Of a DNA stretch of 63,835 nucleotides, positions 29,701 to 59,364 are shown in pieces. Under the pieces are notes generated by a model. That model was not told the origin of the DNA, did no database searches, and was given only the letters and a program-made list of their open reading frames with translations. The stretch is from assembly GCA_964374065.1 (NCBI GenBank), contig CAYJWW010000001.1:1-63835 (forward strand). Reading direction: 5' to 3'. The DNA is from an uncultured Candidatus Saccharibacteria bacterium. Its GTDB lineage: Bacteria; Patescibacteriota; Minisyncoccia; UBA6257; 2-01-FULL-56-20. The position numbers were made by a program, and so were the translations under genes. Position 1 is the stretch's first letter. Each line of letters begins with the position of its first letter.

Positions 29701-30140
29701 ATGGTTTTGTAGGAGTTGTCGAATTCGGTCCAGCGCGCGATGCGGCGCACCATCTTCTTCCACTCGTCCGCGAACTCGAGCACCTTCGCGCGGCAAACTG
29801 CGTTGAATTTCGCGATGCCGATCTCTTCTATCTGCTTCTTGCCGGAGATGCCGAGGTGCCGCTCCACAACCTCCTCGATGGGAAGTCCGTGGCAATCCCA
29901 TCCCCAGCGCCTGCGCACGAAGCGCCCGCGCATCGTCTGATAGCGCGGAATCACGTCCTTAATGGTGGAAGCCAGAATATGGCCATAGTGGGGAAGTCCG
30001 GTGGCAAAGGGCGGTCCGTCATAGAAAGTGAACGGCTCCCCGTCCTTTGTTTTCTCCAGCGTTTTCTCGAAGATTTTCTTATCTTCCCAAAACTTCAAAG
30101 TTTCTTCTTCGAGTTTTGCGGGATTGAATGGCTCGGGCAT
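26730..30140 (-). CDS. ileS: isoleucine--tRNA ligase (type 2-like) with a nested histidine-phosphatase domain
   Basis: HIGH-type PHYGH, CP1 editing signature AWTTTPWTLPGN, KMSKS, and Zn-binding Cys pairs. 1136 aa. Confidence 0.95.
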   Translation of the reverse strand: MPEPFNPAKLEEETLKFWEDKKIFEKTLEKTKDGEPFTFYDGPPFATGLPHYGHILASTIKDVIPRYQTMRGRFVRRRWGWDCHGLPIEEVVERHLGISGKKQIEEIGIAKFNAVCRAKVLEFADEWKKMVRRIARWTEFDNSYKTMDRDYMESVWWAFKEFWKKGLVYEGRRVLLYCPRCETPVSNFEVAMDNSYQDVTEEAVTVKFQITNNKSQVSSKLQLPSDAPIYLLAWTTTPWTLPGNVALAVGKDISYAITKKGDDYLIVAEDSPLGKELGHTGQKVRGEDLVGLVYEPLFDVPLLRQGSEGQAAFKVYLADFVSTEEGAGIVHTAVVYGEEDYELGQKVGLPVVPLLDEKGTFNDKAPELLRGMYFKDADKVVIEDLEKRGLLFAKTQFTHSYPHCWRCGNMLFYNAIPAWFINIQKIKRDLIRSNAKETNWFPGHLKHGRYEKSVEQAPDWNISRNRYWGNPIPVWKCETENCPPMVVGSIKELGVSRNTFIFSRHGEAEHNVRRINSSNVNDPYDLTEEGAVRAQRLAETLREMGGVDLIYASDFKRTRRTAEIVGSTLGIPVECDTRIREYNVGIFTGRPMEEFGSAIPASRRWDEAPEGGESWSDIRTRVLDFADEINRKHSGKRILVVSHGDPLWVLQQHFGSERPYPEFAVPFEMDVAVPDLHRPAIDEAVLKCPACGGKARRIKEIFDSWVEAGSMPFAEYHYPFDQKKTFESRYPGQFVAEYIAQTRAWFYVMHVVGHTLFRKAPFENVVTTGTILAEDGSKMSKSKANYPDPWAVIEKYGVDALRFYLMNSVVMQADNLNFSERELQNTYRKVILILWNVFNYYDTYASEAGFDPKTRWEEGKTFDSVLDRWALAKTQELVNAVTEHLDDYDTVKATRAIAEYIDDLSTWYVRRSRGRKDQEFFLTLRHCLLVASLTAAPFMPYISEAIFRKLDFIGGFPSVHLESWPGKKELSTEDHMLLKQMDVVRNIASLGLAFRKQANVPVRQPLPELRVKNQELKGADALLEVLKQELNVKEIAFDPNLKEEVVLNTELTAELQMEGLVRGLERAIQEARKRAGFKVGEKTALLYRTADEDLRRAMGSINRVKTYLSGVRENADITGGPISIDGKEISLELRRG
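28122..28652 (-). other. histidine phosphatase (PGAM-like, His_Phos_1) domain inserted in IleS (aa about 497-673)
   Basis: All family motifs appear in order: SRHGEAEHN, LTEEGAVRAQRLA, IYASDFKRTRRTAEIV, IREYNVGIFTGRPMEEF, PEGGESWSDIRTRV, ILVVSHGDPL. Confidence 0.85.
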
Positions 30141-39266: not shown

Positions 39267-39488
39267 TTAAACTAAGTGCTTGTTGCGGGAAGTAAAACCG
39301 GAGCCTTGCTTCAGGTATTTTTCAAAGTCTAGAGCTTTTTTCTTATCCCAAAAACAACAATACCAAACAAGTTTAAACGGGACTTTGCTCGCAGTATGTT
39401 TTGATACATGCCAATTGTGATTCTTAACACGACCATCGGGATCCTCGCTGAAACCGGCGTAATAGCTTTTATCTTTTTCACTTCGCAC
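39267..39488 (-). CDS. GIY-YIG nuclease-family small protein, probably 5'-degenerate
   Basis: SEKDKSYYAGFSEDPDGRVKNHN...PFKLVWYCCFWDKKKALDFEKYLKQG matches the short GIY-YIG (URI) domain layout. The first strand reads NFLV with only a GTG start and no ATG upstream in frame. The region is low-GC. Confidence 0.55.
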   Translation of the reverse strand: MRSEKDKSYYAGFSEDPDGRVKNHNWHVSKHTASKVPFKLVWYCCFWDKKKALDFEKYLKQGSGFTSRNKHLV

Positions 39489-39562: not shown

Positions 39563-41365
39563 ATGGAGATAATGAGTACGGAAACTCGCCGATGCCAAAG
39601 TTGTAAAACCCAGTTTACGATTGAACCGGAGGACTTTCTGTTTTACAAAAAAATCAATGTCCCTCCACCGACTTTTTGTCCCGAATGCAGGATGATCCGG
39701 CGAATGAATTTCAGGAATGCTCGGGTGATGTACAAAAGAAAAGTTGAGCAGGCGAATTTGGAGGTTTTTTCTTCTTTTTCTCCCGATACACCCCTCACCA
39801 TCTATGAGCAAAGCTATTGGTGGTCTGGTGATTGGGACGCTATGCAGCGGGGCAAGCCGTATGACTTTTCACGACCGTTTTTTGTTCAACTCAAAGAACT
39901 GATGCAAAGAGTCCCGTGGCCATCTGGTTACAATCTCCGATCAGTAAACAGCGATTATTGCAACAATGTTACAGATTTGAAAAATTGCCATCTTTTATTC
40001 AATTCAGGATTTTCCGAATCCTCTGCCTATGGAGCGGAAATGTTGCGGTGCAATGAAGTTTTTGATTCAACCAAAGTCATCGGATGCGAATTATCCTATG
40101 AACTCCTTGATTGTGAAAAGTGCAATCGCGCTTTTTTCTCTCAGGATTGCGTTGGATGTTCAGAAATTTATTTTTCTCAAAATCTAACAGATTGCCATAA
40201 CTGCTTCGGGTGTATCAATCTCCGCCACAAGCAATACCGTATTTTCAATGAGCAGTACACAAAAGCGGAATACAAGGAATTTCTGAACAAGATCAACCTC
40301 GGCTCTTACAAGGTTGTTGAGGAAATGAAAGAAAAAAGTGTGAGCCACTATTTTCACTTCCCGCGGAGGTATGTGCATGGACAAAACAACAACAACGTAA
40401 GCGGCGATTACTTGGATCATTCAAAGAATACCCACCGTTCCTACTTGTGCAGAGAAATGGAGGATTGCAAGTATTGTCAGCTGATACTTTTTTTGCCCAG
40501 CCGAGAATCATATGACATGACAGTGGCCGGAGGGGAGTTATGTTATGAAGTTGAGGAAGGCGGGGGTTATGGCGTTAAATTTTCGTGGCTTGCATTGCCT
40601 AAAAATCTGAAAACGAGACAAATAAATCTTTTCGATATGGAATATTCGATGGAATGTTTTGATTCGTCATATCTTTTCGGGTGCATAGGTCTCAAAAATA
40701 AGCAGTACTGTATTTTGAACACGCAGTATACAAAAGAAGAATACGCAGAGTTGGTGCCGAAAGTTATTGATCACATGAACTCCATGCCATACACCGATAC
40801 AATGGGGCGTACTTATAAGTACGGAGAGTTTTTCCCGGTTGACCTTTCGCCTTTCGGATACAACGAGACAATCGCACAAGAATATTCCCCTTTGACAAAA
40901 AAAGAAGCGGTCGCGCGGGGTTATGCTTGGAGAGATACTGACGAGCAAAACTACAAGGCAACGGTTGAAGACAACGAACTCCCCGATAGCATTGACGAGG
41001 TAAAGGATTCGATCATCAATGAAAAAATTCATTGTGCTCATTCCGGGAAATGCAACGATGGTTGCACTTCCGTTTTCCGTATTATTCCGATTGAATTGCA
41101 ATTTTATCGAAGATTTAATCTCCCGATTCCGAGATTGTGCTCCAACTGCCGCTATTACCAACGAATCGTAAAACGAAATCCTTTACGTCTTTGGCGACGC
41201 AAATGCACATGTGGCGGAAACAAATCAGAGAACGGCGTTTATCAAAACACAACCGTACACTCTCACGCCGAGAATCCTTGCCCGAACCGGCTCGAGACCT
41301 CTTATGCGCCAGAGAAACCGGAGATTGTCTACTGCGAGCAGTGCTATAACAAGGAGATAGTTTAG
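39563..41365 (+). CDS. 600-aa Cys-rich protein with terminal zinc-ribbon modules and internal duplication; family not recognised
   Basis: N-terminus CQSCKTQFTIEPEDFLFYKKINVPPPTFCPECR; C-terminus CTSVFRIIPIELQFYRRFNLPIPRLCSNCR. Internal duplicates CFGCINLRHKQYRIFNEQYTKAEYKEF and LFGCIGLKNKQYCILNTQYTKEEYAEL. Many evenly spaced Cys. Low-GC. Confidence 0.8.
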   Translation: MEIMSTETRRCQSCKTQFTIEPEDFLFYKKINVPPPTFCPECRMIRRMNFRNARVMYKRKVEQANLEVFSSFSPDTPLTIYEQSYWWSGDWDAMQRGKPYDFSRPFFVQLKELMQRVPWPSGYNLRSVNSDYCNNVTDLKNCHLLFNSGFSESSAYGAEMLRCNEVFDSTKVIGCELSYELLDCEKCNRAFFSQDCVGCSEIYFSQNLTDCHNCFGCINLRHKQYRIFNEQYTKAEYKEFLNKINLGSYKVVEEMKEKSVSHYFHFPRRYVHGQNNNNVSGDYLDHSKNTHRSYLCREMEDCKYCQLILFLPSRESYDMTVAGGELCYEVEEGGGYGVKFSWLALPKNLKTRQINLFDMEYSMECFDSSYLFGCIGLKNKQYCILNTQYTKEEYAELVPKVIDHMNSMPYTDTMGRTYKYGEFFPVDLSPFGYNETIAQEYSPLTKKEAVARGYAWRDTDEQNYKATVEDNELPDSIDEVKDSIINEKIHCAHSGKCNDGCTSVFRIIPIELQFYRRFNLPIPRLCSNCRYYQRIVKRNPLRLWRRKCTCGGNKSENGVYQNTTVHSHAENPCPNRLETSYAPEKPEIVYCEQCYNKEIV

Positions 41366-41392: not shown

Positions 41393-41531
41393 TCGCTCCG
41401 CCTGCCCGATAGGGCAGAACGCCTCAATAAAGTTTTCTTCTTCCTTATTTGAACTTTTTGGGGGCGTGCGCGAAATCCGAGAACAATGTGAAACCCGCAA
41501 GTTGCGAGTTTTGCGATTTTCAGCGAAGAAG

Positions 41532-41846
41532 TGGAGATGGAGGGAATCGAACCCTCGTCTAAAGATGAAGCCAATGAACCTTCTACGAGCGTGTTTCGGT
41601 TGGGAACCGAACGAAGGCGATCCTGAATTTTCGTCCGAGGACCAGGATCGTCATCCTCGGCTTAACCTCCTTATATAAGACCGTACGATGCCTAAGAGGT
41701 ACAGGCGAGGCGGTCCTCTGGCTTACGCGTAAGCGAATGCCGGAGCTGCAACGTTTCGGTTGGCAGTTAAATTGATTTGCGAGTTTTGCGACGTCGCGGT
41801 CGGCTCGCCAGCCCACGGCCAATCTTCATCGAAGCCGTGCATCCCC
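41532..41846 (-). ncRNA. ssrA: tmRNA (ssrA), tag ANRNVAAPAFAYA
   Basis: 5' GGGGATGCACGGCTTCGA and 3' GAGGGTTCGATTCCCTCCATCTCCA form an acceptor stem with a G3:U pair. The internal ORF GCC AAC CGA AAC GTT GCA GCT CCG GCA TTC GCT TAC GCG TAA lies at 41723-41764. Confidence 0.9.
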
Positions 41847-41869: not shown

Positions 41870-41898
41870 AGTATAACCGAGAATTGCTGAAAAGTCAA
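41870..41898 (-). promoter_or_regulatory. near-consensus sigma70-type promoter of ssrA
   Basis: The minus strand reads TTGACT-17 nt-TATACT. The -10 ends about 23 nt upstream of the mature tmRNA 5' end. Confidence 0.6.
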
Positions 41899-42000: not shown

Positions 42001-42246
42001 ATGAATAGTTTCATCCAAGCCGTGCTATATCGGAAAGGAGACACCGTGGCGCTTGTGAGGCTCATTGGATTTACGACGCTCGATTGCGGGTGCGTCATCG
42101 GCAGATACCGGGAGATAGGAACCCAGCGCGAGCTCGCATATGTTGAGGAAAAAGGTGCCTCCTGCACGAATACCACCCATAGGCGAAGCAGCCGATTCAC
42201 CGAGCCGCCTGCAAAACCGGCCGAACCGCGCCGGAAAACCGAGTGA
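42001..42246 (+). CDS. hypothetical small protein (81 aa)
   Basis: ORF with plausible composition (MNSFIQAVLYRKGDTVALVRLIGFTTLDCGCVIGRY). Its stop overlaps the next ORF. No SD. Confidence 0.4.
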   Translation: MNSFIQAVLYRKGDTVALVRLIGFTTLDCGCVIGRYREIGTQRELAYVEEKGASCTNTTHRRSSRFTEPPAKPAEPRRKTE

Positions 42247-42254
42247 GGTGTCTC

Positions 42255-42515
42255 ATGCCGAAACTCACGATCGAAGTGAATGAAGCGGTCCACACGCTCT
42301 TGGGCCAGCCGGAGATCCGCTTCCTCGGCGAAACTCCGGAGGAAGTCGCTTCGTTCCTCGTCAAAAACGGCTGCATCGAGCTCGTTGCGAAAGGCGGCCT
42401 GCTCGACCACCTAGGAAGCTCGTCAACTCGGCGCCCGCCAGCTCCACCGCGGACGGCAAGGCGCCACATTGGGACAAGTCATGGAATCGAAATTCATCGT
42501 CGGCGTGGCGAATAA
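42255..42515 (+). CDS. hypothetical small protein (86 aa)
   Basis: The ATG at 42255 follows GAGGTG. The N-terminal 55 aa look protein-like (MPKLTIEVNEAVHTLLGQPEIRFLGETPEEVASFLVKNG). The tail is Arg/Pro-rich and overlaps the next gene. Confidence 0.45.
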   Translation: MPKLTIEVNEAVHTLLGQPEIRFLGETPEEVASFLVKNGCIELVAKGGLLDHLGSSSTRRPPAPPRTARRHIGTSHGIEIHRRRGE

Positions 42516-42837
42516 AGTGAGTGCGACGTGGAACATCGAGGAGCGCCGAGCGCGGGTTGCGGTGTATCCGGACCAAGAGAGCGATGTTCCCACCCATCCG
42601 GAACATCTGAATCTCCACTTCGTCTGCGCGGGCGTTGAGGCGGCGAACACCGTGCTCCGCGCGCACGACATAAACGTGCGCCTGCATGAACGGCAGAACC
42701 GCGAACTCCCGATCCGCTTTACCATCTCCGAGCCGATCAAGGAACAAGAACGGCCGGACCAAGTGATGCGGCGGATCGTCCGCGAAGTGGAATCGCAATT
42801 CGCGATGAAGCTCCGGAAGATCGCCCTGAATCGGTAA
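42481..42837 (+). CDS. hypothetical protein (118 aa)
   Basis: MESKFIVGVANKVSATWNIEERRARVAVYPDQ. Balanced composition, followed directly by a strong terminator. Confidence 0.55.
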   Translation: MESKFIVGVANKVSATWNIEERRARVAVYPDQESDVPTHPEHLNLHFVCAGVEAANTVLRAHDINVRLHERQNRELPIRFTISEPIKEQERPDQVMRRIVREVESQFAMKLRKIALNR

Positions 42838-42876
42838 TCCCTCGTTTTGCAAGCAAGACGAGGGATTCGCGTTTTA
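42836..42876 (+). terminator. intrinsic terminator
   Basis: AATCCCTCGT-12 nt loop-ACGAGGGATT followed by CGCGTTTTA. Confidence 0.7.
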
Positions 42877-43180
42877 ACCGGCTCAGCCGCTCTTAGCGGT
42901 GGCTGTTCCATTCCTTCTAGACACACGAAAAAGCCCCGAACCGCTCTGGCGGCAAGGGACCTTCGCATTTTCTATGCACAAAATGCCTTGACGAAGGGTA
43001 CGTTCGGCGCCATAGTAATGCCGTTCGCGTTCTTTGACAGTACTTGAATACCGCGCGGAAACACAATGCGCCTTTTAAAATAGACTGAAACAATAAGAAG
43101 GCGTACGGAGTTCCGCGAGGAATCGCCCGTTGTGAGGACGAGCGACTTTACTTAAAAAGTCGAAAAAACATTCGAGTCAT

Positions 43181-43894
43181 ATGATAAAACACATCGCTCT
43201 TTTTGCGATCGTGTGCGCTGCTGTCTTCGCGTTCGTTCCAGGGAACCAAGCTCTTGCATCGCACGGCGGAGCGGAGATCACGCAAGTGGTGACGCTCTCG
43301 TCTCAGCCGTTGGGTAAGGAAACGCTCCAATTGCTCGGGCAAACATTAGGAGCATTGAGGCAGGTCCTCGACACCATCGGCACGCGCGTGAATTCGGCGG
43401 ATCCGCAGGTCGCCTTTAGCGCGGCCCAGCGCCCGGCAGTCTATGCCGTACTGGGCGGGATCCGCGAGTCGCTTCTCTCGATCGACGCGCAGCTCGCGGG
43501 CAAGGCGGTTGCGGCGGGGTATCCGCAGGCGCCTCTGACCGCACAGACGCCCGCACCCGCTCCGGTAGCGCAGCGCGCGCCCGAAGGGGCTCCCGCCCCT
43601 GCGACCGCTTCGAATGAAGCCGCGCGGCAGCCGGCCGCCGCCACAGCCCAGCCCGCTCCGCAATTCAGCGCATCCGAGGTAGAGCGGACGGGGCAAACCG
43701 CGGTCGTTGCGGCGCGCGCCGAAACCGCACGGCGCTGGTTCTTCATCACTTTGGGGATCATCCTGCTCGCAGGTGCCGCGTTTTACTGGTGGCGCGAGCG
43801 ACAAGTCGCGAGCGAGGACGCAGTGTTCGAAGCTCCGCAATTCGCGACAGGTTCTCCCAAAGAAGACGCTCCCTCGTGGAGCCCGGGAACGTAA
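43181..43894 (+). CDS. secreted/anchored Ala-Pro-rich protein (signal peptide + C-terminal TM)
   Basis: MIKHIALFAIVCAAVFAFVPGNQALA looks like a signal peptide. It is followed by a helical region, an A/P/Q-rich linker, the TM helix WFFITLGIILLAGAAFYWW and a short tail. Confidence 0.65.
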   Translation: MIKHIALFAIVCAAVFAFVPGNQALASHGGAEITQVVTLSSQPLGKETLQLLGQTLGALRQVLDTIGTRVNSADPQVAFSAAQRPAVYAVLGGIRESLLSIDAQLAGKAVAAGYPQAPLTAQTPAPAPVAQRAPEGAPAPATASNEAARQPAAATAQPAPQFSASEVERTGQTAVVAARAETARRWFFITLGIILLAGAAFYWWRERQVASEDAVFEAPQFATGSPKEDAPSWSPGT

Positions 43895-43903
43895 CGGATC
43901 CGA

Positions 43904-43932
43904 GAGACCCCGAAAGGGGTCTTTTGGTTTTT
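43904..43932 (+). terminator. canonical intrinsic terminator
   Basis: GAGACCCC-GAAA-GGGGTCTT followed by TTGGTTTTT. Confidence 0.85.
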
Positions 43933-43959
43933 GACACGCTTCACCAATCGATATACAAA
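43931..43959 (+). promoter_or_regulatory. sigma70-type promoter-like element
   Basis: TTGACA-17 nt-TACAAA lies about 55 nt upstream of the ATG at 44013, which has the SD AAGGAGGAGGG. Confidence 0.5.
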
Positions 43960-44012
43960 TAGGGCGGAACCGCCCAAGAGGTGCGCCTCGCGGGCCAAAC
44001 AAGGAGGAGGGT

Positions 44013-44699
44013 ATGCCCTTACCGAACGAACTGTGCGGATTACGAACGCTCGCTGCCCGCGGACCCTTGGCCGACGATGACTGGTGCGCGCTCCTCGAGG
44101 CGCGCCACAGGCTCATCGCGCCGCAACTCGACCGATTCACGCTTCCCTCGCTGGGAACGTTCCAGTGCCTCAAAACGGAATCGCACTGGACACGCCAGAT
44201 CAGCTGTTTCGTCTCGAACACTACCGGCGATTCCCGGTTCTCGCTCGAGACGCAGGGACTCTTTGGATACTCGTGGAGCAGCCGGGAAGAAACGAGCCCC
44301 GACCGGCACGTCAACATGTGGTACGCACAGACCCTTCATCCAGCGGACGGATGTCTCCGCATCTGGGGACTCACTCGGAAGGGCAACTGGATCATTGCCA
44401 CCGTCGTATATGTCGGCGAGGAAGGATACAAGGGACGAGGCGCCGAACGCGCGACGGAAATCGGGATCCGCGAAGTCACCATCCAGGAGCTCGTCGCGCA
44501 ATCGAAGTGCCACCCGCGGGAGATCTGGAGGGCGCTGGGAAAGCGCTTTCACGAACTCGTTCAGATCCGGCGGGCGCAGTACGAGAACGCTCGCGAAATC
44601 GCGGCGGTTATGAACACCGAAGAGCAGCTCGAAGCGCTCATTGAAGAACGACTCAGGAAGGCGGAACATGGAGATCACAACGAACCGGCCTCCGCATGA
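44013..44699 (+). CDS. hypothetical protein (228 aa)
   Basis: Strong SD and balanced composition with a C-terminal helical tail. No family recognised. Confidence 0.65.
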   Translation: MPLPNELCGLRTLAARGPLADDDWCALLEARHRLIAPQLDRFTLPSLGTFQCLKTESHWTRQISCFVSNTTGDSRFSLETQGLFGYSWSSREETSPDRHVNMWYAQTLHPADGCLRIWGLTRKGNWIIATVVYVGEEGYKGRGAERATEIGIREVTIQELVAQSKCHPREIWRALGKRFHELVQIRRAQYENAREIAAVMNTEEQLEALIEERLRKAEHGDHNEPASA

Positions 44700-44871
44700 A
44701 AAACCCGTCGCGTTCGAGTACCTTTCGGACTACGGCTTCGCTGCCATATGCCCCTTCTGCGGGAAGCCGGCGGTACTCGAGGCGACCTGCGACGAAGGAA
44801 GGAAGTTCTGCTGCGAACGCGACGCCTGCAAGGATCGTGCCGCAGCGTTCGCCCGTGCCTTCGCGGCGTAA
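44668..44871 (+). CDS. small Cys-rich (zinc-finger-like) protein (67 aa)
   Basis: MEITTNRPPHEKPVAFEYLSDYGFAAICPFCGKPAVLEATCDEGRKFCCERDACKD. The ATG overlaps the end of the previous gene. A hairpin terminator follows. Confidence 0.5.
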   Translation: MEITTNRPPHEKPVAFEYLSDYGFAAICPFCGKPAVLEATCDEGRKFCCERDACKDRAAAFARAFAA

Positions 44872-44888
44872 CCCACTTGAACATCCAG

Positions 44889-44910
44889 AGGCCCCGACTC
44901 GTCGGGGCCT
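44889..44910 (+). terminator. hairpin terminator
   Basis: AGGCCCCG-ACTCGT-CGGGGCCT followed by TCGCATTTATTC. A second hairpin lies at about 44943-44968. Confidence 0.5.
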
Positions 44911-45026
44911 TCGCATTTATTCACAAGGCATTAAATAAGTTCGGGGCCGCTCGTGTGAGTGGCCCCGTATGAAAGATTCCGACCCCTGGGTCGGCAGGTT
45001 ACGCTCTATTGATGATGCCAAGGTGC

Positions 45027-45099
45027 GTATTTATATGATACCGCGAATGTGCACATCCGCAATACGGCCTGTGGATAACTCCGGTAAATATGTGGATAT
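45027..45099 (+). repeat. AT-rich tract plus three phased DnaA-box/iteron-like repeats (candidate replication origin)
   Basis: GTATTTATATGATA at 45027-45040. Then TGTGCACAT (45048), TGTGGATAA (45070; exact reverse complement of TTATCCACA) and TGTGGATAT (45091), spaced 22 and 21 nt apart. Confidence 0.5.
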
Positions 45100-45183
45100 C
45101 TCGCTTAACGGGCTTTTTCCGTGCTCTACAAATGAAACGGCGCGCAGGGCCTCCTTTCGGAGACGCGCTACGCGCCGGTGATG

Positions 45184-47907
45184 TCAGCCGTCCTCTGTGA
45201 CGGCTTGGCTTTCGAACCCTGCGGGGCCCGTACGCGGATCCATTGCCGCGATCCGGGCAAACCGCTCAAGCTCTGCCACGTGCCTGCCTTCCTTCACCCA
45301 CCAGGTGTTGATGTCGTCGTGCGGCGACCCTGGCGAAATGATCTCGGGCGTGCCGTTCCGAACCTCTCCCTGGAAACCGAGCTTCCGCACCTCGGCGATC
45401 AAGGCGTCTGCCGCCTTAATCCCCGCATCGTCGTTGTCGAGCGCGACGACGAGTGCGTTGCCGGTTCGCTTCACGGCCTCGACAACCGCTTTCGTAATCG
45501 TCGCGTTCGCGATGCCGGCGTACGCGATCGTTGATTTCCCCAGGCCTTCGAGGGTCAAGGCATCCATCACTCCCTCCACGAGCCAAACCTCGCGCCCGAG
45601 GGTACGGAACGATTCTCGTCCGAACCAACCATGGGGAACCCCCGTGTGTTCGGTGGAGAGCTTGAGATGCTTCGGCTTCCCCTCCGAACGGATCGTCCGG
45701 GCGTAAAAGTTCGTGAGCTTCCCGTCATAGGTCAGCGGAAAGGTGATGCGGCCGTCGACGAATAGCGAGTACGGCAGGCCATACTTTTGCTCCTCGCCTT
45801 TCAGGGCGGAGGAGATCGGGCGTTTCGCCGTCTCGAACGTGAATCCAAGGCGGGCGAGGAGCTGCGGCATCGACTGTCCCCAGCGCACATTCTCCGAGAG
45901 TCCGAGGATGCCGTAGTGGATAAGCTCGTCGAGGCTATACTCGCACTCCTTGATGAGCGCGGAGATGAGCCCGAGCGTTGCGAACCCCGCTCCTTTCTCG
46001 TATGCGAAGTCTGGATCGAGTCCCCGTTCGCGCCACAGGTAATCCGCCGCCGCGCTCCGTATGAAGCACGCGTGGAGGAGTTCTTGCACGGCCGCGAGGA
46101 AGCGATGATGCTCGGCGGGTACGGCGATCACGTCTCCCTTTGCGCCTCGGACTCGTCCGGCTCCTGGCGCGAAAGCGATCTCGTACTCCGCAGGAACGGA
46201 GCGCGGATCGATCCCTCCGGCGCGATTGCATCCGAAACAGTGGAACGCGCCTCTCGGGATGTTCACGTAGAACGATGGATTGCCGGGATCGGCGTGATCA
46301 GGGAATGGGCAACGGATATGCCCGCCGCGCCCAGGATTGAAGGACTTCGAAATGTCGATCTCTCCGTCACGGATCGCTTCGATCAAGTTCCCGAGATGAA
46401 GCGAGAATTTCCCGTCCGGCTCCCGCGCGATGATACGCGCATCGTCCACGAAACGGTACCGCTCAATGAGCTGGACCGCCCGCGTTCGAGGCGCGATCAT
46501 TGCATCCAAGAGCGGACTTTTTCTCCGGAGACGCGGTGCTTCCGACTTCCCGCGCAACGTTCGGATAAGGTAATTCGCGAGGTCGGCGTTCAGTGCCCGC
46601 ACGTCGGCGCGCCGTTCGGCTCTCTTCCAGCGTGCGACTACCCACTCGAGAAAGCCCTGCTTTTGCTCGCTCGGAGCGGAGGTCACGCCGTGGGAGATTG
46701 CGTTCGCGGTCGGAATGAAATACACCATGTCTCCGCGCTTCGCGCTCGTTTCCTCCCACAGCCGCCCGCCTCCCGCCAGGTGGTGGCTCATCGCGGCGAA
46801 GATGAGATAGGTGAGCATCTGGTCTTCGTGGCGCCGGATCGGCTTGTCGCTCACTTCGGCGAGTTGGATGATCTTCCCCCTCGTCCCATCGCCCACCGCG
46901 AATTTCCAGTCGCGGACCTCGGCTTCGAACTCGCCGAAGAGGACGATGAGGTTGCGGAGGAGCTCGACGAGCGAGCCCCACCGATACCGCGTCATCCGCT
47001 CGAGCACCCGAAACTGCGAGTGAGTCGGTGGTTTGCCGTTGATCGTCGCGATCTCCAGGGCGTCGATGCGCCGGCCCCCCATGCCGTGGATCGAGGGCTG
47101 GAAAATGGGTATCTCCGAGAAGAAGATCCTCGGCTGCTCCAATTCCTCCCGATAGAGGCGGAGCACCATTGCCCAGGCCATCGCGGTTAAAGCGGCAAGG
47201 TAACCGGAATCGGCGAGTTCCGGGCGTTGGATCGCCCTCGTGTAGTCGCCCATGATCGGCGCGAGCGCATCATAGAGCTCACAAACCTCCGGCCGAGCGG
47301 AAAAGTACCATGCCGACCAGTCGCGTGATGATTCGACGTTTGCCTGAAGCGCTTGCCATGCCGTATCGATCCGGTCGAACACGCGCTCAAGGGCCTTGCC
47401 CTCGAGCGGTTTCGCTTTCCCGCCGCCGGTCATATGGCCGTTCGGATATCCGTCGAAAAGCGGCAGCGGGCTTGGTTCGCCGAAAAGCTCGAGCTGACCC
47501 GCATGCGCGCGTTGCGGCTGATTCAGGAAAAGCGCTCCCGAAAAAAGCCGCGGCACCATTGCATGGCCGATGATCCCGAAAACCCGCGTGGAATCGGCCC
47601 GCCGATCGCGCTTCACGCCCGTGAGCTCTTCGAGCTGCGCGAAGAGCGCGTAGTGGAAGCGGTCGTTGTTCAGGTCGCCCCAGAGCGGCGGACCGCCTTT
47701 GCGGTTCATCCGCTTCGCGAGTTGGACCAAGGCGGCGAGCGCGGCCTCTTTCGAGTCCGCGATCTTCGCGGCGATGAGCGCCCGGACGAAAAGGTCAAGC
47801 CTTCCGCCCGAGAGCATTTCCCACGCCCAATCTCCGAACTGAGGAGAGGGCACGGGGAGATCGCTCAAGTCTTCGGCCGTCACCGGCTCGATGAGCTGGT
47901 CTTCCAT
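45184..47907 (-). CDS. fusion protein: N-terminal PD-(D/E)xK (RecB/Cas4-like) nuclease-like region + DnaG-type primase (zf-CHC2 + TOPRIM)
   Basis: zf-CHC2: CPFPDHADPGNPSFYVNIPRGAFHCFGCNRAG. TOPRIM: VWLVEGVMDALTL ... VVALDNDDAGIKAA. Nuclease-like motifs: GRRIDAL, EVRDWKF, QMLTYL. Start at the ATG at 47907, behind AAGGAG. Confidence 0.8.
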   Translation of the reverse strand: MEDQLIEPVTAEDLSDLPVPSPQFGDWAWEMLSGGRLDLFVRALIAAKIADSKEAALAALVQLAKRMNRKGGPPLWGDLNNDRFHYALFAQLEELTGVKRDRRADSTRVFGIIGHAMVPRLFSGALFLNQPQRAHAGQLELFGEPSPLPLFDGYPNGHMTGGGKAKPLEGKALERVFDRIDTAWQALQANVESSRDWSAWYFSARPEVCELYDALAPIMGDYTRAIQRPELADSGYLAALTAMAWAMVLRLYREELEQPRIFFSEIPIFQPSIHGMGGRRIDALEIATINGKPPTHSQFRVLERMTRYRWGSLVELLRNLIVLFGEFEAEVRDWKFAVGDGTRGKIIQLAEVSDKPIRRHEDQMLTYLIFAAMSHHLAGGGRLWEETSAKRGDMVYFIPTANAISHGVTSAPSEQKQGFLEWVVARWKRAERRADVRALNADLANYLIRTLRGKSEAPRLRRKSPLLDAMIAPRTRAVQLIERYRFVDDARIIAREPDGKFSLHLGNLIEAIRDGEIDISKSFNPGRGGHIRCPFPDHADPGNPSFYVNIPRGAFHCFGCNRAGGIDPRSVPAEYEIAFAPGAGRVRGAKGDVIAVPAEHHRFLAAVQELLHACFIRSAAADYLWRERGLDPDFAYEKGAGFATLGLISALIKECEYSLDELIHYGILGLSENVRWGQSMPQLLARLGFTFETAKRPISSALKGEEQKYGLPYSLFVDGRITFPLTYDGKLTNFYARTIRSEGKPKHLKLSTEHTGVPHGWFGRESFRTLGREVWLVEGVMDALTLEGLGKSTIAYAGIANATITKAVVEAVKRTGNALVVALDNDDAGIKAADALIAEVRKLGFQGEVRNGTPEIISPGSPHDDINTWWVKEGRHVAELERFARIAAMDPRTGPAGFESQAVTEDG

Positions 47908-48146
47908 GTTCCGTCTCCTTATGAGATGGGTTCCGAGTTCCAAGCTGCAAGTGGTAAGTTTTCAAACGAGTCCCTGCTGGCTATATAGCATTATTCGGAT
48001 CGCGGGCTCAAGTGAAGCTGTGCACAGCCTGTATGCGGGCGCACACCATGACGATGACGGCTGTGGTTTTTGCCATCGTCATCGCACGGAGATGCGTATC
48101 CCCCGCGAGCGCGATGCCCGCAGGGGATCCTGTGATGTGCCCGGCC

Positions 48147-48752
48147 TTAGGCCACGCGCTTCTTCAAGCGCGCCTCGTCGGCGATGACCTCCTCGATCTC
48201 GTCGCCGGCGGGCTTTACGCGGAATTCCACGACCTGGACGATCTTCACGCCCTTCACGTTCGCGGCCTTCTCGCGGTTCTCCTCCGACTGGAGGATCGTC
48301 TCGCGGTCCACCTCTTCCTTCTTCCGCACGAAGTCGGTGAGGCCGAGCGCCTTCAAGCGCCCGATCACGGCGTCCGCCTTGTCGGTCAATTCCACCTTGT
48401 GCGGATTCGTGTGCTCGCCGATCACTCCCGTGCCCAAGTCCACCGACTTGCGCGCGCCGTTCTCGGTAAGCTCGGCGCGGTTCGCGTCGAAGAAGAGGAA
48501 GAGCGCGTCCACGAGAGAGTCGATTCTCTGCTGGTGGGGGCCCGCCTTTTGGGTAACCTCTTCCTGGATCTTCGCCATGCGCCCTTGGGCGTCCGTGGCG
48601 ATCGTCTTGAGCTTCCGCTGCTCGTCGCCCAAGAGGCGCACGAGCCGCGCGGCCCCTTCGCGGTCCGCGGGGACCTCGACGGCGGGTTTCGGTTGGACGA
48701 TTTTCTCGCCGACCGGCTTTCGGGCGGCAACTGCCCCTTTCGCGCTTGCCAT
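48147..48752 (-). CDS. gam: bacteriophage Mu Gam-like DNA-end-binding (host nuclease inhibitor) protein
   Basis: ANRAELTENGARKSVDLGTGVIGEH and LKALGLTDFVRKKEEVDRETIL align closely with Mu Gam (ANRDELTNGGKVKTANLVTGDVSWR; LERLGLQRFIRTKQEINKEAIL), preceded by a coiled coil. ATG at 48752, behind GAGGAGG. Confidence 0.85.
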   Translation of the reverse strand: MASAKGAVAARKPVGEKIVQPKPAVEVPADREGAARLVRLLGDEQRKLKTIATDAQGRMAKIQEEVTQKAGPHQQRIDSLVDALFLFFDANRAELTENGARKSVDLGTGVIGEHTNPHKVELTDKADAVIGRLKALGLTDFVRKKEEVDRETILQSEENREKAANVKGVKIVQVVEFRVKPAGDEIEEVIADEARLKKRVA

Positions 48753-48861
48753 GGGAACCTCCTCTGACCGGCCTCCGGCGCCGGACGAAGTTTGGGATGC
48801 TGGATCAGAACCGCCATTAGATAAGCAAAGGAGAACGCCGCCGTCAAACGATGCGGGCCCG

Positions 48862-48872
48862 GTGGATAACTC
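48862..48872 (+). repeat. second copy of GTGGATAACTC (DnaA-box-like) upstream of gam
   Basis: The 11-mer is identical to 45071-45081, in direct orientation. The two copies bracket the gam-primase module. Confidence 0.7.
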
Positions 48873-48998
48873 GGCTCGTAAAAAGTTCTCACTCGCGTAT
48901 ACTGTGGGCAAAAGGTCGTTTGCGTAACCATGAAGCCCTTCGGGGCGCGCCGGGCTATGCCGGGCGGCCAATCGTTTGGATCTCGACGCAAGCGAGCG

Positions 48999-49030
48999 AT
49001 CCCGCCTCCCGGCGGGATTTGTTAGTTTAA
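48999..49030 (+). terminator. orphan plus-strand intrinsic terminator
   Basis: ATCCCGCC-TCCC-GGCGGGAT followed by TTGTTAGTTT. No plus-strand CDS lies upstream of it. Confidence 0.55.
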
Positions 49031-49040
49031 AATAGCTACC

Positions 49041-49112
49041 AAATACGAATTTTTTACGAATCTACGAATGCATGCTTTCATTCGTATATTCGTACTTTTT
49101 CGTATTTCGTAG
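49041..49112. repeat. three-tier TACGAA/TTCGTA palindromic array immediately upstream of murB
   Basis: TACGAA at 49044, 49055 and 49063. TTCGTA at 49081, 49089, 49099 and 49106. The array is symmetric around about 49075 and ends 9 nt before the murB ATG. Confidence 0.85.
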
Positions 49113-49120
49113 CGAAACCC

Positions 49121-50185
49121 ATGCAGATCAAAGAACACGTTCCATTGGCTCCGCTCACGACGTTCGGCATCGGGGGACCAGCCAGATACTTTACGGAAGT
49201 CACAACCGAGGCGGAGGCCGGAGAGGCGGTGCGATTTGCCCGAGCGCGCGGGCTGTGGGTATTCGTACTTGGCGCAGGGAGCAATATCCTGGTAAGCGAC
49301 AATGGCTTCGCGGGCCTTGTGATCGCAAACCGCATACGCGGGATAACGGTCTCGGACGAAGGCGTTGTCCGCGCCGGCGCCGGAGAAGCGTGGGATCGCG
49401 TCGTGGCGCACGCGGTCGAGAAACGCCTCGCCGGGGTCGAATGCATTTCCGGCGTCCCGGGACTCGCAGGAGGAGCACCGGTGCAAAATGTCGGCTGCTA
49501 CGGGCAGAGCGCCGATGCGGTCATCCGCGAAGTACGCGCCGTAAGCCTACAAACCGGTGCGATCGAATCGCTCACGAATGCGCAATGCGAGTTCCGTTAT
49601 AGGGACAGCTTCTTTCGAAGAAACCCCGGCCGCTATTTGATCACCGAAGTCTCGCTTGGGCTCATTCCGGGAGGACCGCCGACTACCGCGTATCACGACG
49701 TGGCGCGGCGCCTTGCGCGCAATCCCTCCCCGACGCTTAGGGACGTCCGGGACGCGATCATCGAGATCCGCGCAAGAAAAGGAATGGTGCTATTGCCCGG
49801 ATGGGAATCGTTCAAAAGCGGCGGGTCGTTCTTCAAGAACCCCGTGGTCTCCGAAGATGCGCTTTCCGGAGTTGCAGCGAGGGTCCGCAATGCGCCTTCG
49901 GGCGCATGCGCTCCGCCGTGGTTCTGGGAAATGCGGGACCGGAGCATAAAAATAGCCGCCCCATGCCTTCTGGAGTGCGCGGGTTTCCCGAGGGGACACA
50001 TGGACGGCAATGTCGGCATTTCGCCTAAACACGCCCTTTCAATCATTAATAGAGGCGGCGCAACGGCAGCAGAGGTCGTCGCATTCGCGACGCGCATCAG
50101 GGATGCCGTAAAGGACGCCTTTGGCATCCCTCTCGCGCCAGAAGTGGAATGCGTGGGCTTCGACGCTGACCCGTTCGGCTCATAA
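49121..50185 (+). CDS. murB: UDP-N-acetylenolpyruvoylglucosamine reductase
   Basis: PLAPLTTFGIGGPA, FVLGAGSNIL, GGAPVQNVGCYG and a C-terminal GSFFKNP motif. Confidence 0.92.
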   Translation: MQIKEHVPLAPLTTFGIGGPARYFTEVTTEAEAGEAVRFARARGLWVFVLGAGSNILVSDNGFAGLVIANRIRGITVSDEGVVRAGAGEAWDRVVAHAVEKRLAGVECISGVPGLAGGAPVQNVGCYGQSADAVIREVRAVSLQTGAIESLTNAQCEFRYRDSFFRRNPGRYLITEVSLGLIPGGPPTTAYHDVARRLARNPSPTLRDVRDAIIEIRARKGMVLLPGWESFKSGGSFFKNPVVSEDALSGVAARVRNAPSGACAPPWFWEMRDRSIKIAAPCLLECAGFPRGHMDGNVGISPKHALSIINRGGATAAEVVAFATRIRDAVKDAFGIPLAPEVECVGFDADPFGS

Positions 50186-52572: not shown

Positions 52573-52923
52573 CTAGTCTGATCTGCCGGACTTACGGGGC
52601 CGATCCCAGCCGTATTTCTTCAGGTCGATTTTCCCGTCCTTAAGCGAAACCCCTTCTTTGCGAAGAAGAAGGATTTTCTTTTCCGGTCCGCCTGCATAAC
52701 CGCCTAACGTGCCGTCGGAGCGGACCACGCGGTGGCACGGCACCTGCCTGCCGGCAGGCAGGCCCGAGGACGCGCCGAAGGGATTTTTGTTCAACGCGTT
52801 CCCGACCGCGCGGTAGGCCGCGCGGTGTCCGATATGCTCCGCAAGCGCGCGATAGGTGGTCACCTTGCCGCGCGGAATTGCTTCAAGCGCCCGCCATACT
52901 CGCTCATTAAAATTAGCCGCCAT
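52573..52923 (-). CDS. MGMT-family protein (methylated-DNA--protein-cysteine methyltransferase, DNA-binding/active-site domain)
   Basis: PCHRVV active-site motif and VTTYRALA helix-turn-helix region. 116 aa. Confidence 0.85.
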   Translation of the reverse strand: MAANFNERVWRALEAIPRGKVTTYRALAEHIGHRAAYRAVGNALNKNPFGASSGLPAGRQVPCHRVVRSDGTLGGYAGGPEKKILLLRKEGVSLKDGKIDLKKYGWDRPRKSGRSD

Positions 52924-53410
52924 GGCCGTGCCGCTTGCGCCGCTCGATGAAGTCGCGGGATTCCTTTAACACCCGCTTCGTGCCGGCATATTTTTTCCCA
53001 AGTATCTTCATTGCGTCCTCGTAGAGGAACCAGGCAAACCCGCTGTGCTCCCGCGGCGAGATGCGCACTTCCGCTTGTTTGGTTTCCGCGAGGTATAAGA
53101 TGAGCGTGTCGTAGATCTTTTCGCGCCCGCGGTAGAAATGAAACTTCACGTATGTTTTGAAATCCGGGATGATGCGGAGCTCCGAGGGCTTAAGGCCGGT
53201 TTCCTCTTCGGTTTCGCGGAGTGCCGCTCCCAGGCTCTTTTCTCCCGAGGCAAAATGTCCTTTGGGAAAATTCCAGTAATTTCCCCTTCGATAGAGCAGC
53301 AGGAATTTAAGGCCCTCATCCGTTTTCCGATACACGACGAATCCTGCAACGACTTGCTTCTTCACCTGCACCTGTTTTTTCCGGTTCACATCGTGAGTCA
53401 TGCGGATCAT
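52913..53410 (-). CDS. NUDIX hydrolase
   Basis: Nudix box GHFASGEKSLGAALRETEEETGL. Start at ATG 53410, forming an ATGA overlap with the polX stop. Confidence 0.85.
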   Translation of the reverse strand: MIRMTHDVNRKKQVQVKKQVVAGFVVYRKTDEGLKFLLLYRRGNYWNFPKGHFASGEKSLGAALRETEEETGLKPSELRIIPDFKTYVKFHFYRGREKIYDTLILYLAETKQAEVRISPREHSGFAWFLYEDAMKILGKKYAGTKRVLKESRDFIERRKRHGHGG

Positions 53411-55173
53411 TTTACCACTATTCCCCATCTGCGCCGATTTCTCTTTATGCGTGCGAGCATTTTCTGAAGCGGCCATGCGTTAATCACATCTTTGCGCTCG
53501 ACCCATCCCCGCCTCGCCTGTCCGATGCCGTATTCAAGATTCTTAAGATGGGATGCCGCGTGCGCATCGGTATCGATCGCGAGCATTACCCCCGCCTCGA
53601 CCGCCTTTTTCGCATACTCTCCATGCAGATCAAGGCGATGGGGATCGGCATCGATTTCCAGCACCGTTCCGGTCCGCTTCGCGGCCTCGATCACCGCATC
53701 CATATCGAGCGCTATGGGCTCGCGCCGGCCAACGAGCCGGCATGTCGGATGGAACAAGATATCCGCATGCGGGTTCTCCATCGCCCGGATCACGCGCCGT
53801 GTTTGCTCCTCCCGGGGAAGGCCGAAGTGGGAATGGACCGCCACCCCCACAACGTCGAGTTTTGCGAGAACGTCGTCCCGGATATCGAGCGAACCGTCCT
53901 TCGTGATGTTCACCTCGGCGCTCTTCAGAATGCGCAGCTTTGAGTTTTTAGTTTTTAGTTTTGAGTTTAATCTGTCGATCTCCTTCATTTGGCGCAGGAG
54001 CTTCTTCTCGTCCGCGCCGCCAGTCATGGCAAGGGATTTCGTATGATCCGTGATCGCGAGGTATTCATGCCCCAGGAGCGCGGCCGCTTCCGCCATCTCT
54101 TCGATCGAATCCGCTCCGTCCGTCCAATCCGTCGTAACCTGGAGGTCCCCCCTGAGATCGCCGTAGCCTATCAGGCGCGGGAGCTTGCCCATGGCAGCCG
54201 CTTCGATCTCCCCGGTATCGGTGCGCATCTCGGGAGGGATCCACGGAAGTCCGAGTCGTTCATAGATGTCCTTCTCCGAGAACGCCGCTATCGGCTTCTT
54301 GCCCTTGAATAACCCGTACTCGTTCAATTTATATCCCTTCTTGATCGCGCGCTCGCGCATTTTGATGTTGTGCCGCTTATCACCCGTGAAATATTGAACG
54401 GCTGCGCCGAACGACTGCGGCGGCACCACGCGAAGGTCGGCGTCGATACCCGGCCGAAGCCGCACAAGTGTCTTGGAATCGCCCTTCGCATACACGTGAA
54501 CCACTTCGGGGAGTGATGCGAAGTAATCCATAACCGGCTTCGGCCTGTCGGATGTTACCAAAATATCTATGTCCCCCACGGTCTCCTGCCAGCGCCGATA
54601 CGATCCGCACACCACCACTTCTTTCACCCCTTTTGCTCCTTTCAATCTTTTCACGATCGACTCCACGAGGGGCCGCGCGACGCCTATCGGAAACCTTCCT
54701 CTCGCCCGCTTCTCGAAATCGATCGCTTTGAGTATCTTCGCTTCGAACTTTTCTCCCAGCCGCGGGAGCGTGCGGATCTTCTTTTCTCTCGCGGCCCGCG
54801 CGAGGTCCTTGATGCTCCGGATCCGAAGCGTTTCCCAAAGGACTTTCACCATCTTCGGCCCGAGCCCCTCGAGCGAGATAAGCGCTCCGATCTCCATTGG
54901 ATATTTTTTCTTGAACCGCTCGTGGTCTTTCGCCCTCCCCGTTTTCAACAGTTCTTCGATTCGAAGCGCGATGCCTGCGCCAACGCCGGGTATCCGCATA
55001 AGCCCCTTTTTGCCTTCTTTTGCGTAGACATCGGCAAGATCCTCGGTGAGCCCGCTCACCGCGTACGCGGCACGCTCATATGCGCGCGGCTTAAACGGCG
55101 CCTCCTCCATCTCGAGATAAACCGCGAGTTCTTCCAAGACCTTTGCGATCTCCTGGTTTGAAACACGGCGCAT
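53407..55173 (-). CDS. polX: DNA polymerase X family protein with C-terminal PHP phosphoesterase domain
   Basis: N-terminal HhH (IPGVGAGIALRIEELL), nucleotidyltransferase GSYRRWQETVGDIDILV, and PHP motifs (TDHT, VHSH, IDTDAH). Confidence 0.9.
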   Translation of the reverse strand: MRRVSNQEIAKVLEELAVYLEMEEAPFKPRAYERAAYAVSGLTEDLADVYAKEGKKGLMRIPGVGAGIALRIEELLKTGRAKDHERFKKKYPMEIGALISLEGLGPKMVKVLWETLRIRSIKDLARAAREKKIRTLPRLGEKFEAKILKAIDFEKRARGRFPIGVARPLVESIVKRLKGAKGVKEVVVCGSYRRWQETVGDIDILVTSDRPKPVMDYFASLPEVVHVYAKGDSKTLVRLRPGIDADLRVVPPQSFGAAVQYFTGDKRHNIKMRERAIKKGYKLNEYGLFKGKKPIAAFSEKDIYERLGLPWIPPEMRTDTGEIEAAAMGKLPRLIGYGDLRGDLQVTTDWTDGADSIEEMAEAAALLGHEYLAITDHTKSLAMTGGADEKKLLRQMKEIDRLNSKLKTKNSKLRILKSAEVNITKDGSLDIRDDVLAKLDVVGVAVHSHFGLPREEQTRRVIRAMENPHADILFHPTCRLVGRREPIALDMDAVIEAAKRTGTVLEIDADPHRLDLHGEYAKKAVEAGVMLAIDTDAHAASHLKNLEYGIGQARRGWVERKDVINAWPLQKMLARIKRNRRRWGIVVK

Positions 55174-58728: not shown

Positions 58729-59364
58729 TCAAAAGAGCTTCGGCTGAGGTGCATCCTCCGATGGCGCGGCGCCCTGCTCGCGAAACGGCGATGCGGCAAT
58801 GAGTTTTTCGTAGTTTCGGAGTGCGACCGCGAGTTTTTTAAAGCTTTCCCGGAATTGCAGCATCACTTCCGTGCCTCGCAGCGCCGCCGCCGGATGGAAA
58901 AGCGGCACGATGAGCCTGTGTTTCATGCGGAACACCTTGCCCTGGTCGCGGGTGATCTTTGCCGCCGGCAGGAAGAAATTCATTGAAAAACGCCCAAGGG
59001 TCGCGATGATCTTCGGCTCGATGCATTCGATCTGCCGCGCAAGATAGGGCTGGTAGGCCTCGATCTCTCCGGGAAGCGGGTCGCGATTTTCCGGCGGACG
59101 GCGTTTGACGATGTTCGTGATATATACGTCTTCCTCCTTCCATCCGATACTCCGGATGCATTCGCGCAAAAGCTGCCCGCCGCGCCCCACGAAAGGGCGC
59201 TTTTGGACGTCTTCGTGATAACCCGGGGCTTCACCGATAAACATGACTTCGGCTGCCGGACTCCCTTCCCCAAACACAAGGTTCGTCTGAAGCGGCAGTG
59301 TTTCATCCGCGGCCATTTCAGCCTCGAGTCCCTGGAGCAGTTTTTCTTTCTCGCCACGCGTCAT
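58729..59364 (-). CDS. udg: uracil-DNA glycosylase, family 4
   Basis: GEAPGYHEDVQKRPFVGRGG and HPAAALR motifs. Confidence 0.9.
   Translation of the reverse strand: MTRGEKEKLLQGLEAEMAADETLPLQTNLVFGEGSPAAEVMFIGEAPGYHEDVQKRPFVGRGGQLLRECIRSIGWKEEDVYITNIVKRRPPENRDPLPGEIEAYQPYLARQIECIEPKIIATLGRFSMNFFLPAAKITRDQGKVFRMKHRLIVPLFHPAAALRGTEVMLQFRESFKKLAVALRNYEKLIAASPFREQGAAPSEDAPQPKLF

Follow-up and report, generated by a model that had tools for sequence, protein, structure and literature searches.

A DnaG-type primase with a nuclease-like N-terminal domain lies beside a Mu Gam-family gene between ssrA and murB in an uncultured Candidatus Saccharibacteria bacterium

The tmRNA gene (ssrA) and murB are separated by about 7.1 kb in a contig from an uncultured Candidatus Saccharibacteria bacterium (GenBank assembly GCA_964374065.1, contig CAYJWW010000001.1). 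Our analysis covers one window of this genome, the 63,835 nucleotides that begin at position 1 of the contig, and is centered on the eight open reading frames (ORFs), termed g1 to g8, that occupy the interval between the two genes (42.0-49.1 kb). An earlier reading of the sequence alone had proposed that the interval is an accessory island or integrated replicon that carries a phage- or plasmid-type replication module. Our results favor a different interpretation, to which we assign a probability of roughly 55%: the interval is ordinary, poorly conserved host chromosome without an integrated element, and its two minus-strand genes, g7 and g8, function in host DNA-end metabolism. The g7 gene encodes a RecB-like domain joined to a DnaG-type primase, and g8 encodes a Mu Gam-family protein. 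The Gam protein belongs to a known family. The g7 fusion is a rare and undescribed architecture; no description of a RecB-like nuclease fused to a DnaG-type primase was found in the searchable literature.

The g7 gene (45184..47907, minus strand, start at 47907) encodes 907 amino acids, with an N-terminal RecB-like domain of the PD-(D/E)xK type followed by the primase. It is preceded by its own promoter-like sequence (TTGAGC-18-TATATA) and an AGGAG ribosome-binding site. Its coding score is 0.23, where scores are codon-usage log-odds per codon, with 21 of the window's sure genes, which themselves score 0.14-0.34, as the training set.

The sequence-only reading had described g7 as a nuclease-primase fusion, and the primase half of this description is well supported. 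A DnaG-type CHC2 zinc ribbon is encoded at 46216..46314 on the minus strand (PF01807, E 3.3e-5), with C533, C557, and C560 invariant. At 24.1 bits, this match is slightly below the cut-off of 24.9, and it is backed by profile matches to the structures 1d0q and 2au3. The Toprim domain (45358..45591, minus strand) matches PF13155 with an E value of 3e-11 and 44 bits, versus a cut-off of 22.1. The acidic residues of Toprim (E778, D824-x-D826, and D865) are retained; in an alignment of 16 sequences, E778, D824, and D826 vary little or not at all. The C-terminal half of the protein also matches PHROG primase families and the NCBIfam model TIGR01391 (dnaG). A profile of the g7 family matches DnaG structures from Aquifex, E. 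coli, Staphylococcus, and others (2au3 with E 3e-15, and also 5vaz, 1d0q, and 1dd9). Thus, g7 shares with the bacterial replicative primase the zinc ribbon, the catalytic core, and a Toprim domain with its E, DxD, and D residues. Judging from these retained residues, the g7 primase is catalytically intact.

In other respects, g7 differs from DnaG. The protein stops ~45 residues past Toprim, and Pfam detects no DnaB_bind domain in it. In addition, g7 carries a conserved N-terminal extension of ~520 residues that includes the nuclease-like domain. In two relatives (L054 and L063), a canonical DnaG with DnaB_bind is encoded on the same contig, 4-6 kb from the g7 homologue. This coexistence indicates that the g7 family constitutes a second, auxiliary primase, a paralogue of DnaG with a non-replicative role. 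For the same reason, we reject the possibility that g7 is the replicative primase of the organism.

Support for the nuclease half of the fusion comes from motifs and from the predicted topology, along with fold matches that are weak. The nuclease-like domain (46408..47415, minus strand) corresponds to residues 165-500 of the 907-residue form. In the 16-sequence alignment, residues E265, R280, D282, D333-W-K335, G339, D340, Q363, Y367, and H406 are invariant in the 16 family members. Within this set, the pattern D...DxK...QxxxY (D282, D333-W-K335, and Q363/Y367) appears in the order that is canonical for PD-(D/E)xK enzymes. An AlphaFold2 model of the domain alone (pLDDT 71, pTM 0.64) predicts an alpha-beta-beta-beta-alpha-beta core, in which D282 is positioned at the start of strand 2, DxK at the end of strand 3, and QxxxY in the next helix. 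A model of full-length g7, built from 5 sequences, was unusable (pLDDT 43.5). When BFVD was searched with Foldseek, the top matches were mostly PD-(D/E)xK or RecB-like exonucleases, with weak scores (E 0.017-1, TM 0.2-0.3). Thus, the motif order and the predicted core resemble those of RecB-family PD-(D/E)xK exonucleases (RecB/AddB and the phage RecB-like or Cas4-like enzymes), whereas the g7 domain lacks a conserved Cys cluster of the Cas4/AddB type and is fused to a primase. Because the motifs and predicted topology fit and the fold matches are weak, we treat the designation as likely: the modeled domain is likely a RecB-type nuclease.

The g7 family is rare. Only four full-length relatives were found among the 5.8 billion proteins searched. 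A metagenome scan produced 27 loci, which brings the family to ~30 loci altogether among 241 million metagenome records, and searching with an N-terminal-domain profile contributed just two further proteins, including one from Candidatus Yanofskybacteria. The named homologues, together with sample types such as 0.1-micron groundwater fractions, suggest that the host is a Patescibacteria/CPR bacterium. No relatives of g7 are found in IMG/VR or in 50,697 phage records. Plasmid matches are confined to the primase domain and are weak, at 26-28% identity.

The closest g7 orthologues (46% identity; L003 and L045-L047) are chromosomal and reside between ogt and rplT, within a block of genes that is syntenic with 51.5-61.9 kb of the window. 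On one side of the orthologue, this block encodes a transporter, tRNA-Arg, UDG, a Clp ATPase, PolX-PHP, a Nudix protein, and Ogt, and on the other side it encodes L20, L35, and InfC. The proteins of the block are 38-73% identical between the window and these relatives, so g7, at 46%, has diverged on a par with its housekeeping neighbors. DNA-repair genes are prominent in the segment conserved with L045 (51558-61888): UDG (58729-59364), PolX-PHP (53407-55173), Nudix, and Ogt. The last three form a gene string (52573..55173, minus strand; assigned by Pfam), and the relatives carry their g7 orthologue directly after ogt. In the window, the gap between ogt and rplT is 15 bp, and g7 is found 4.6 kb away, past infC, a gene of 393 amino acids, murB, and the Gam gene. 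Because g7 has been retained within 5 kb despite the divergence of these genomes, vertical inheritance with local rearrangement appears more plausible than independent acquisition.

Distant members of the family are located near genes for a Mur ligase, PPDK, an AIR-synthase-like protein, YceG, MlaC, a nucleotidyl-transferase, or a ribosomal protein (L9/L27). Nearly every g7-family gene is preceded by a dedicated promoter (TTGACA...TATAAT-like), an extended leader, and a strong ribosome-binding site, which makes it a self-contained unit. When the upstream regions of these genes were searched for a common operator motif, just the promoters and ribosome-binding sites emerged.

The g8 gene (48147..48752, minus strand) is in tandem with g7 and was correctly recognized at the outset as Mu Gam-like. 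The match to PF07352 (E 1.7e-26; 93.4 bits, cut-off 28.3) extends over profile positions 2-149 of 149, and phrog_491 is matched with E 2.3e-29. The start at 48752 lies behind a GGAGG site, and the coding score is 0.42. The protein had been taken to be 274 amino acids long; however, the 73-codon extension upstream of this start scores as non-coding, and the length is corrected to 201 amino acids. Mu Gam is an orthologue of Ku that binds double-strand ends as a dimer, blocks exonucleases, and is able to promote end joining in concert with a host ligase (PMC8987985). The g8 protein shares 29-32% identity with the Gam proteins of Mu-like phages. In contrast to Mu Gam, it is encoded near neither a transposase gene nor other phage genes, and no Mu-like prophage is present.

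The homologues of g8 with 58-64% identity are chromosomal single genes that lie in unrelated contexts in related candidate-phyla bacteria, one of them Candidatus Jorgensenbacteria. One of these genes resides between parAB and rpsR-ssb-rpsF, and a second is flanked by msrB and a response regulator gene. No primase gene is present near them, no match to g8 was found in IMG/VR, and a search of the surroundings of Gam genes for conserved non-coding sequence turned up none that the window shares. Conversely, the ~30 g7-family loci include no homologues of Gam or of g1-g6. Homologues of Gam, g5, and g7 are thus unlinked elsewhere, which leaves no evidence that the eight genes travel together. Likewise, the units of the interval are unlinked in the relatives examined, and the nearest relatives found do not share the block as a whole.

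Two observations concern the surroundings of the Gam genes in other genomes. At the Jorgensenbacteria locus (L004), a 50-nt direct repeat (92% identity) has one copy upstream of the Gam gene (9531-9580) and one downstream (11169-11218), and the downstream copy lies within a strain-specific insertion that contains an HTH gene and a serpin gene. The intergenic regions that flank the Gam genes there are unusually long (0.5-1 kb).

The layout of the interval was confirmed with ARAGORN, Rfam, and Pfam. Its left landmark is ssrA (41529/41531-41846, minus strand; ARAGORN, and Rfam RF00023 with 100.4 bits), which is preceded by a promoter-like site at 41870..41898 on the minus strand (TTGACT-17-TATACT, matching 10 of 12 positions in a consensus scan). 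Its right landmark is murB (49121-50185, plus strand; MurB_C and FAD_binding_4 in Pfam). Because ssrA is on the minus strand, the interval is on the 5' (promoter) side of this gene. All eight ORFs are present at the positions originally reported, and the view that their content is not housekeeping stands.

The composition of the interval is that of the host. Its GC content is 58-64%, versus a background of ~57% in the window. Over 41-51 kb, tetranucleotide distances to the whole window are 0.014-0.020 (window median, 0.015; 90th percentile, 0.020). By codon usage, g3, g5, g7, and g8 are likewise host-like. Searches of Pfam, PHROGs, PADLOC, and NCBIfam revealed no match to an integrase, transposase, capsid, terminase, helicase, or initiator among the eight ORFs. 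No att-like direct or inverted repeats that flank the region were found, and the tmRNA 3' end occurs only once if an unrelated T-arm of tRNA-Ser is set aside.

With islands and prophages targeted to tmRNA or tRNA genes, the region shares its location next to ssrA and its non-housekeeping content. However, it differs from them by its 5' position and by the lack of an integrase gene, of a duplicated ssrA 3' end at a far boundary, and of deviant composition. The judgment of the sequence-only reading that this is neither a standard prophage nor an ssrA-3' island therefore holds. Its more specific proposals find no support. Evidence against an accessory island or integrated replicon includes the host-like composition, the absence of att-like repeats, and the location of g7 orthologues in a syntenic chromosomal block. 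A phage- or plasmid-type replication module is likewise unsupported: the primase has no helicase or initiator partner and no phage or IMG/VR relatives, and its plasmid matches are restricted to the primase domain. The suggestion of a DNA-end-centered locus fares better, in that it is retained as host repair and abandoned as a mobile element.

If g7 and Gam participate in host DNA-end metabolism, the nuclease domain of g7 might trim or resect a DNA end that is broken or stalled. The primase domain could then prime the exposed single strand with a short stretch of RNA, a step for which DnaB would not be needed, and fill-in would fall to a repair polymerase such as PolX, whose gene is close by. 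Gam may hold the DNA end meanwhile. A functional link between g7 and Gam is weakly suggested by their adjacency in one population.

The arrangement is reminiscent of Ku-LigD by analogy only, with a Ku-like end-binding protein encoded beside a polypeptide that has nuclease-like and primase domains. In contrast to that system, the eight ORFs encode no ligase and no archaeo-eukaryotic primase domain; the g7 primase is of the DnaG/Toprim type; the nuclease of g7 is PD-(D/E)xK-like, whereas that of LigD is a phosphoesterase; and the pairing of Gam with g7 is not conserved. A far more speculative extension, which we consider unlikely, is that the g7 family represents unrecognized helicase-independent repair primases that, together with a domesticated Gam, PolX, and the replicative ligase, form a minimal end-repair pathway of the DnaG type. 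Such a pathway would use DnaG-type parts where Ku-LigD uses archaeo-eukaryotic-type ones.

To our knowledge, DnaG-type primases are viewed nearly exclusively as components of the replisome. If the g7 family is indeed a helicase-independent DnaG paralogue that is coupled to a nuclease and maintained beside repair genes in ultra-small bacteria, then the roles of this enzyme class would be wider than so far known, and g7 would offer a handle on how genome-reduced bacteria without canonical pathways deal with broken ends. The stand-alone chromosomal Gam genes in these lineages point in the same direction. The fall of the island interpretation also removes a false lead, as the compositional anomaly of the window is on the other side of ssrA.

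Several results weigh against an ordinary chromosomal stretch with two DNA-end genes. Unlike members of the RecB family, the N-terminal domain of g7 has no significant profile or structural match: a Foldseek search of PDB with the domain model gave nothing at E <= 0.001, none of 15 N-terminal domains from the g7 family matches Pfam, and sequence-profile searches of PDB were also negative. The adjacency of g7 and Gam is observed in this population alone, and a partnership thus lacks the support of a conserved neighborhood. Since g7-family genes have their own promoters, their closeness to repair genes says little about function. A rare, patchy family in varied contexts would equally suit a defense gene. 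Finally, synteny with the nearest relatives ends at infC, the ssrA-murB block as a whole is not conserved there, and no relative with >60% identity was found, which is also compatible with an old insertion whose composition has drifted toward that of the host.

The alternative that survives best, although we consider it somewhat unlikely, is that g1, g2, g6, and perhaps g4 are not genes, in which case the region is mostly spacer with three or four real genes. In L074, a second and independent assembly from this population with 3 mismatches over 10,964 bases, seven of the eight ORFs are called and only g1 is missing. The coding scores of g1, g2, and g6 are weak (0.036-0.044), as is that of g4 (0.095), and long spurious ORFs are frequent at 60% GC. 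Moreover, no relatives of g1-g4 or g6 were detected in any library or locus examined. On the other hand, plausible ribosome-binding sites precede g1 and g2, terminator hairpins are located exactly 3' of g3, g4, and g6, the independent annotation pipeline called g2, g4, and g6, and the signal-peptide and anchor design of g4 is coherent.

The individual ORFs differ in how well they are supported. The g1 ORF (42001..42246, plus strand; coding score 0.044) is a doubtful gene, with an alternative GTG start at 42047 behind an AAGGAG ribosome-binding site. The small g2 ORF (42243..42515, plus strand; coding score 0.036) has no family match and probably starts at an ATG at 42255, as called in L074, which gives 86 amino acids. 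In contrast to these scores, g3 (42469..42837, plus strand; 118-122 amino acids) reaches 0.262 and is also called in L074; it is followed by an inverted-repeat hairpin at 42829-42874, and IMG/VR holds no homologue.

The Ala/Pro-rich g4 product (43181..43894, plus strand; called in L074) has no above-threshold family match. Its translation has a signal-like hydrophobic segment at the N-terminus and a membrane-spanning segment at the C-terminus, and the gene is followed by a terminator with a 12-bp stem (43900-43927). The Cys-rich g6 ORF (44641..44871, plus strand; CxxC...C...CC...C), called as 67 amino acids in L074, overlaps the end of g5, has a coding score of 0.043 and a sub-threshold match to Lar_restr_allev (E 0.037), and is followed by a terminator with a 10-bp stem (44888-44911).

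All six plus-strand ORFs had been regarded as orphans. This description remains apt for g1-g4 and g6, whereas g5 (44013..44699, plus strand; 228 amino acids; coding score 0.14) belongs to an uncharacterized family of ~210 amino acids, with relatives in 266 representative clusters at E <= 1e-3 and in 120 at E <= 1e-10. The nearest of these, at 48% identity, stands alone on the chromosome of a related bacterium, flanked by mraY and a tRNA synthetase gene. The g5 family profile has no credible match in Pfam or PDB, and g5 has no match in IMG/VR. A match of the family profile to a phage coat protein (E 0.0016) is marginal and probably spurious. The best reading of the plus strand is that g2/g3, g4 (as a secreted, anchored protein), and g5 (with or without g6) are separately transcribed, lineage-specific units.

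A second alternative, which we regard as improbable, is that g7 is a single-gene anti-phage defense or counter-defense system, in which a nuclease effector is combined with a primase-like sensor or synthetase and resides with Gam in a locus of DNA-end conflict. The patchy rarity of the family, its variable contexts, the self-contained gene with its own promoter, and the 4.6-kb shift of g7 between relatives are all consistent with such a system. The primase-domain matches in PADLOC are to DnaG-like modules of defense-associated reverse transcriptases; however, these matches are limited to the generic primase domain. The neighbors examined are housekeeping genes, with no known defense genes among them, and the gene has been held stably in one block over roughly 50% protein divergence, which speaks against a defense role.

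Equally improbable is a decayed prophage, plasmid, or satellite whose integrase and structural genes are gone and whose composition has drifted toward that of the host, with Gam and the primase fusion as the leftover replication and end-protection module. Gam is a classic gene of transposable phages, mobile elements commonly carry primases without a DnaB-binding domain, the region adjoins the tmRNA gene, and the block is non-syntenic with the nearest relatives. Several distant g7-family genes are also situated ~0.1-1.5 kb from a tRNA gene (L048, 9801-9876; L053, 6102-6176 and 10725-10797; L055, 13623-13695; and L052, 7475-7549), which may hint, if weakly, that the gene by itself was once mobile. 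These points are offset by the 5' location, the lack of att repeats or an integrase fragment, the host-like composition, the absence of phage, IMG/VR, or full-length plasmid relatives of g7, the housekeeping-like divergence of its orthologue in the same neighborhood, and the failure of Gam, g5, and g7 homologues to be linked elsewhere.

The transcriptional layout had been described as two convergent minus-strand genes and units with strong terminators. In fact, g7 and g8 are not convergent with each other; as a tandem pair, they converge on the plus-strand block. Hairpin terminators do stand directly after g3, g4, and g6, although the total number of terminator-like sites (12 found versus 9.6 +/- 2.7 expected) shows no excess over chance. 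A further plus-strand hairpin between Gam and murB (48998-49019; a 9-bp stem, then a T-rich tail) has no plus-strand gene upstream and no Rfam match. In the segment from 38 to 51.5 kb, an Rfam scan at permissive thresholds found tmRNA as the sole match, and a tandem-repeat scan found one trivial 22-nt repeat and nothing else.

The tmRNA gene encodes the tag peptide ANRNVAAPAFAYA. A 16-nt copy (15/16 matches) of a 5' segment of tmRNA (41825-41840) is present at 42010-42025, inside g1. This resemblance is at chance level, and we reject the copy as an att site also because it is 185 bp upstream of ssrA, on a side where a displaced fragment of the gene would not be expected. The exact 15-nt repeat TTGCGAGTTTTGCGA occurs at 41502-41516, just 3' of ssrA, and at 41777-41791, within it; this too is near chance level.

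At the opposite end of the interval, murB is most similar, among species-representative genomes, to genes of Acidobacteriota and Sorangium (44-47% identity), and matches from Patescibacteria/Saccharibacteria reach just 35-41%. The codon score of murB is also lowish (0.107). Together, these observations suggest that murB may have been acquired horizontally, and thus that the variable stretch may reach infC. Just past infC, L046 (4792-8455) has genes for PGA_cap, an FAD oxidoreductase, and YGGT, and L047 (3705-5591) has two unknown genes and YGGT. Because these two relatives are closely related and yet differ at this point, the junction appears to be a hotspot of turnover in the lineage.

The real compositional outlier of the window is located at 39.2-41.5 kb, on the 3' side of ssrA, which is the canonical side for islands. 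In the segment 39267-41500, GC content falls to 42-49%, versus ~57%, and the tetranucleotide distance reaches its maximum for the window (0.035). The segment contains a Cys-rich ORF of 600 amino acids with internal repeats (39563-41365) and a GIY-YIG gene of 73 amino acids (39267-39488), both with non-host codon usage. The Cys-rich ORF has no relatives in Pfam, phage collections, or IMG/VR, and neither an integrase nor an att repeat was found in the 39.2-41.5 kb segment. Elsewhere in the window, a tRNA synthetase ORF of the isoleucyl/valyl type (26730-30140; 1136 amino acids) has an unusual architecture, with a histidine-phosphatase domain (His_Phos_1) inside its catalytic domain.

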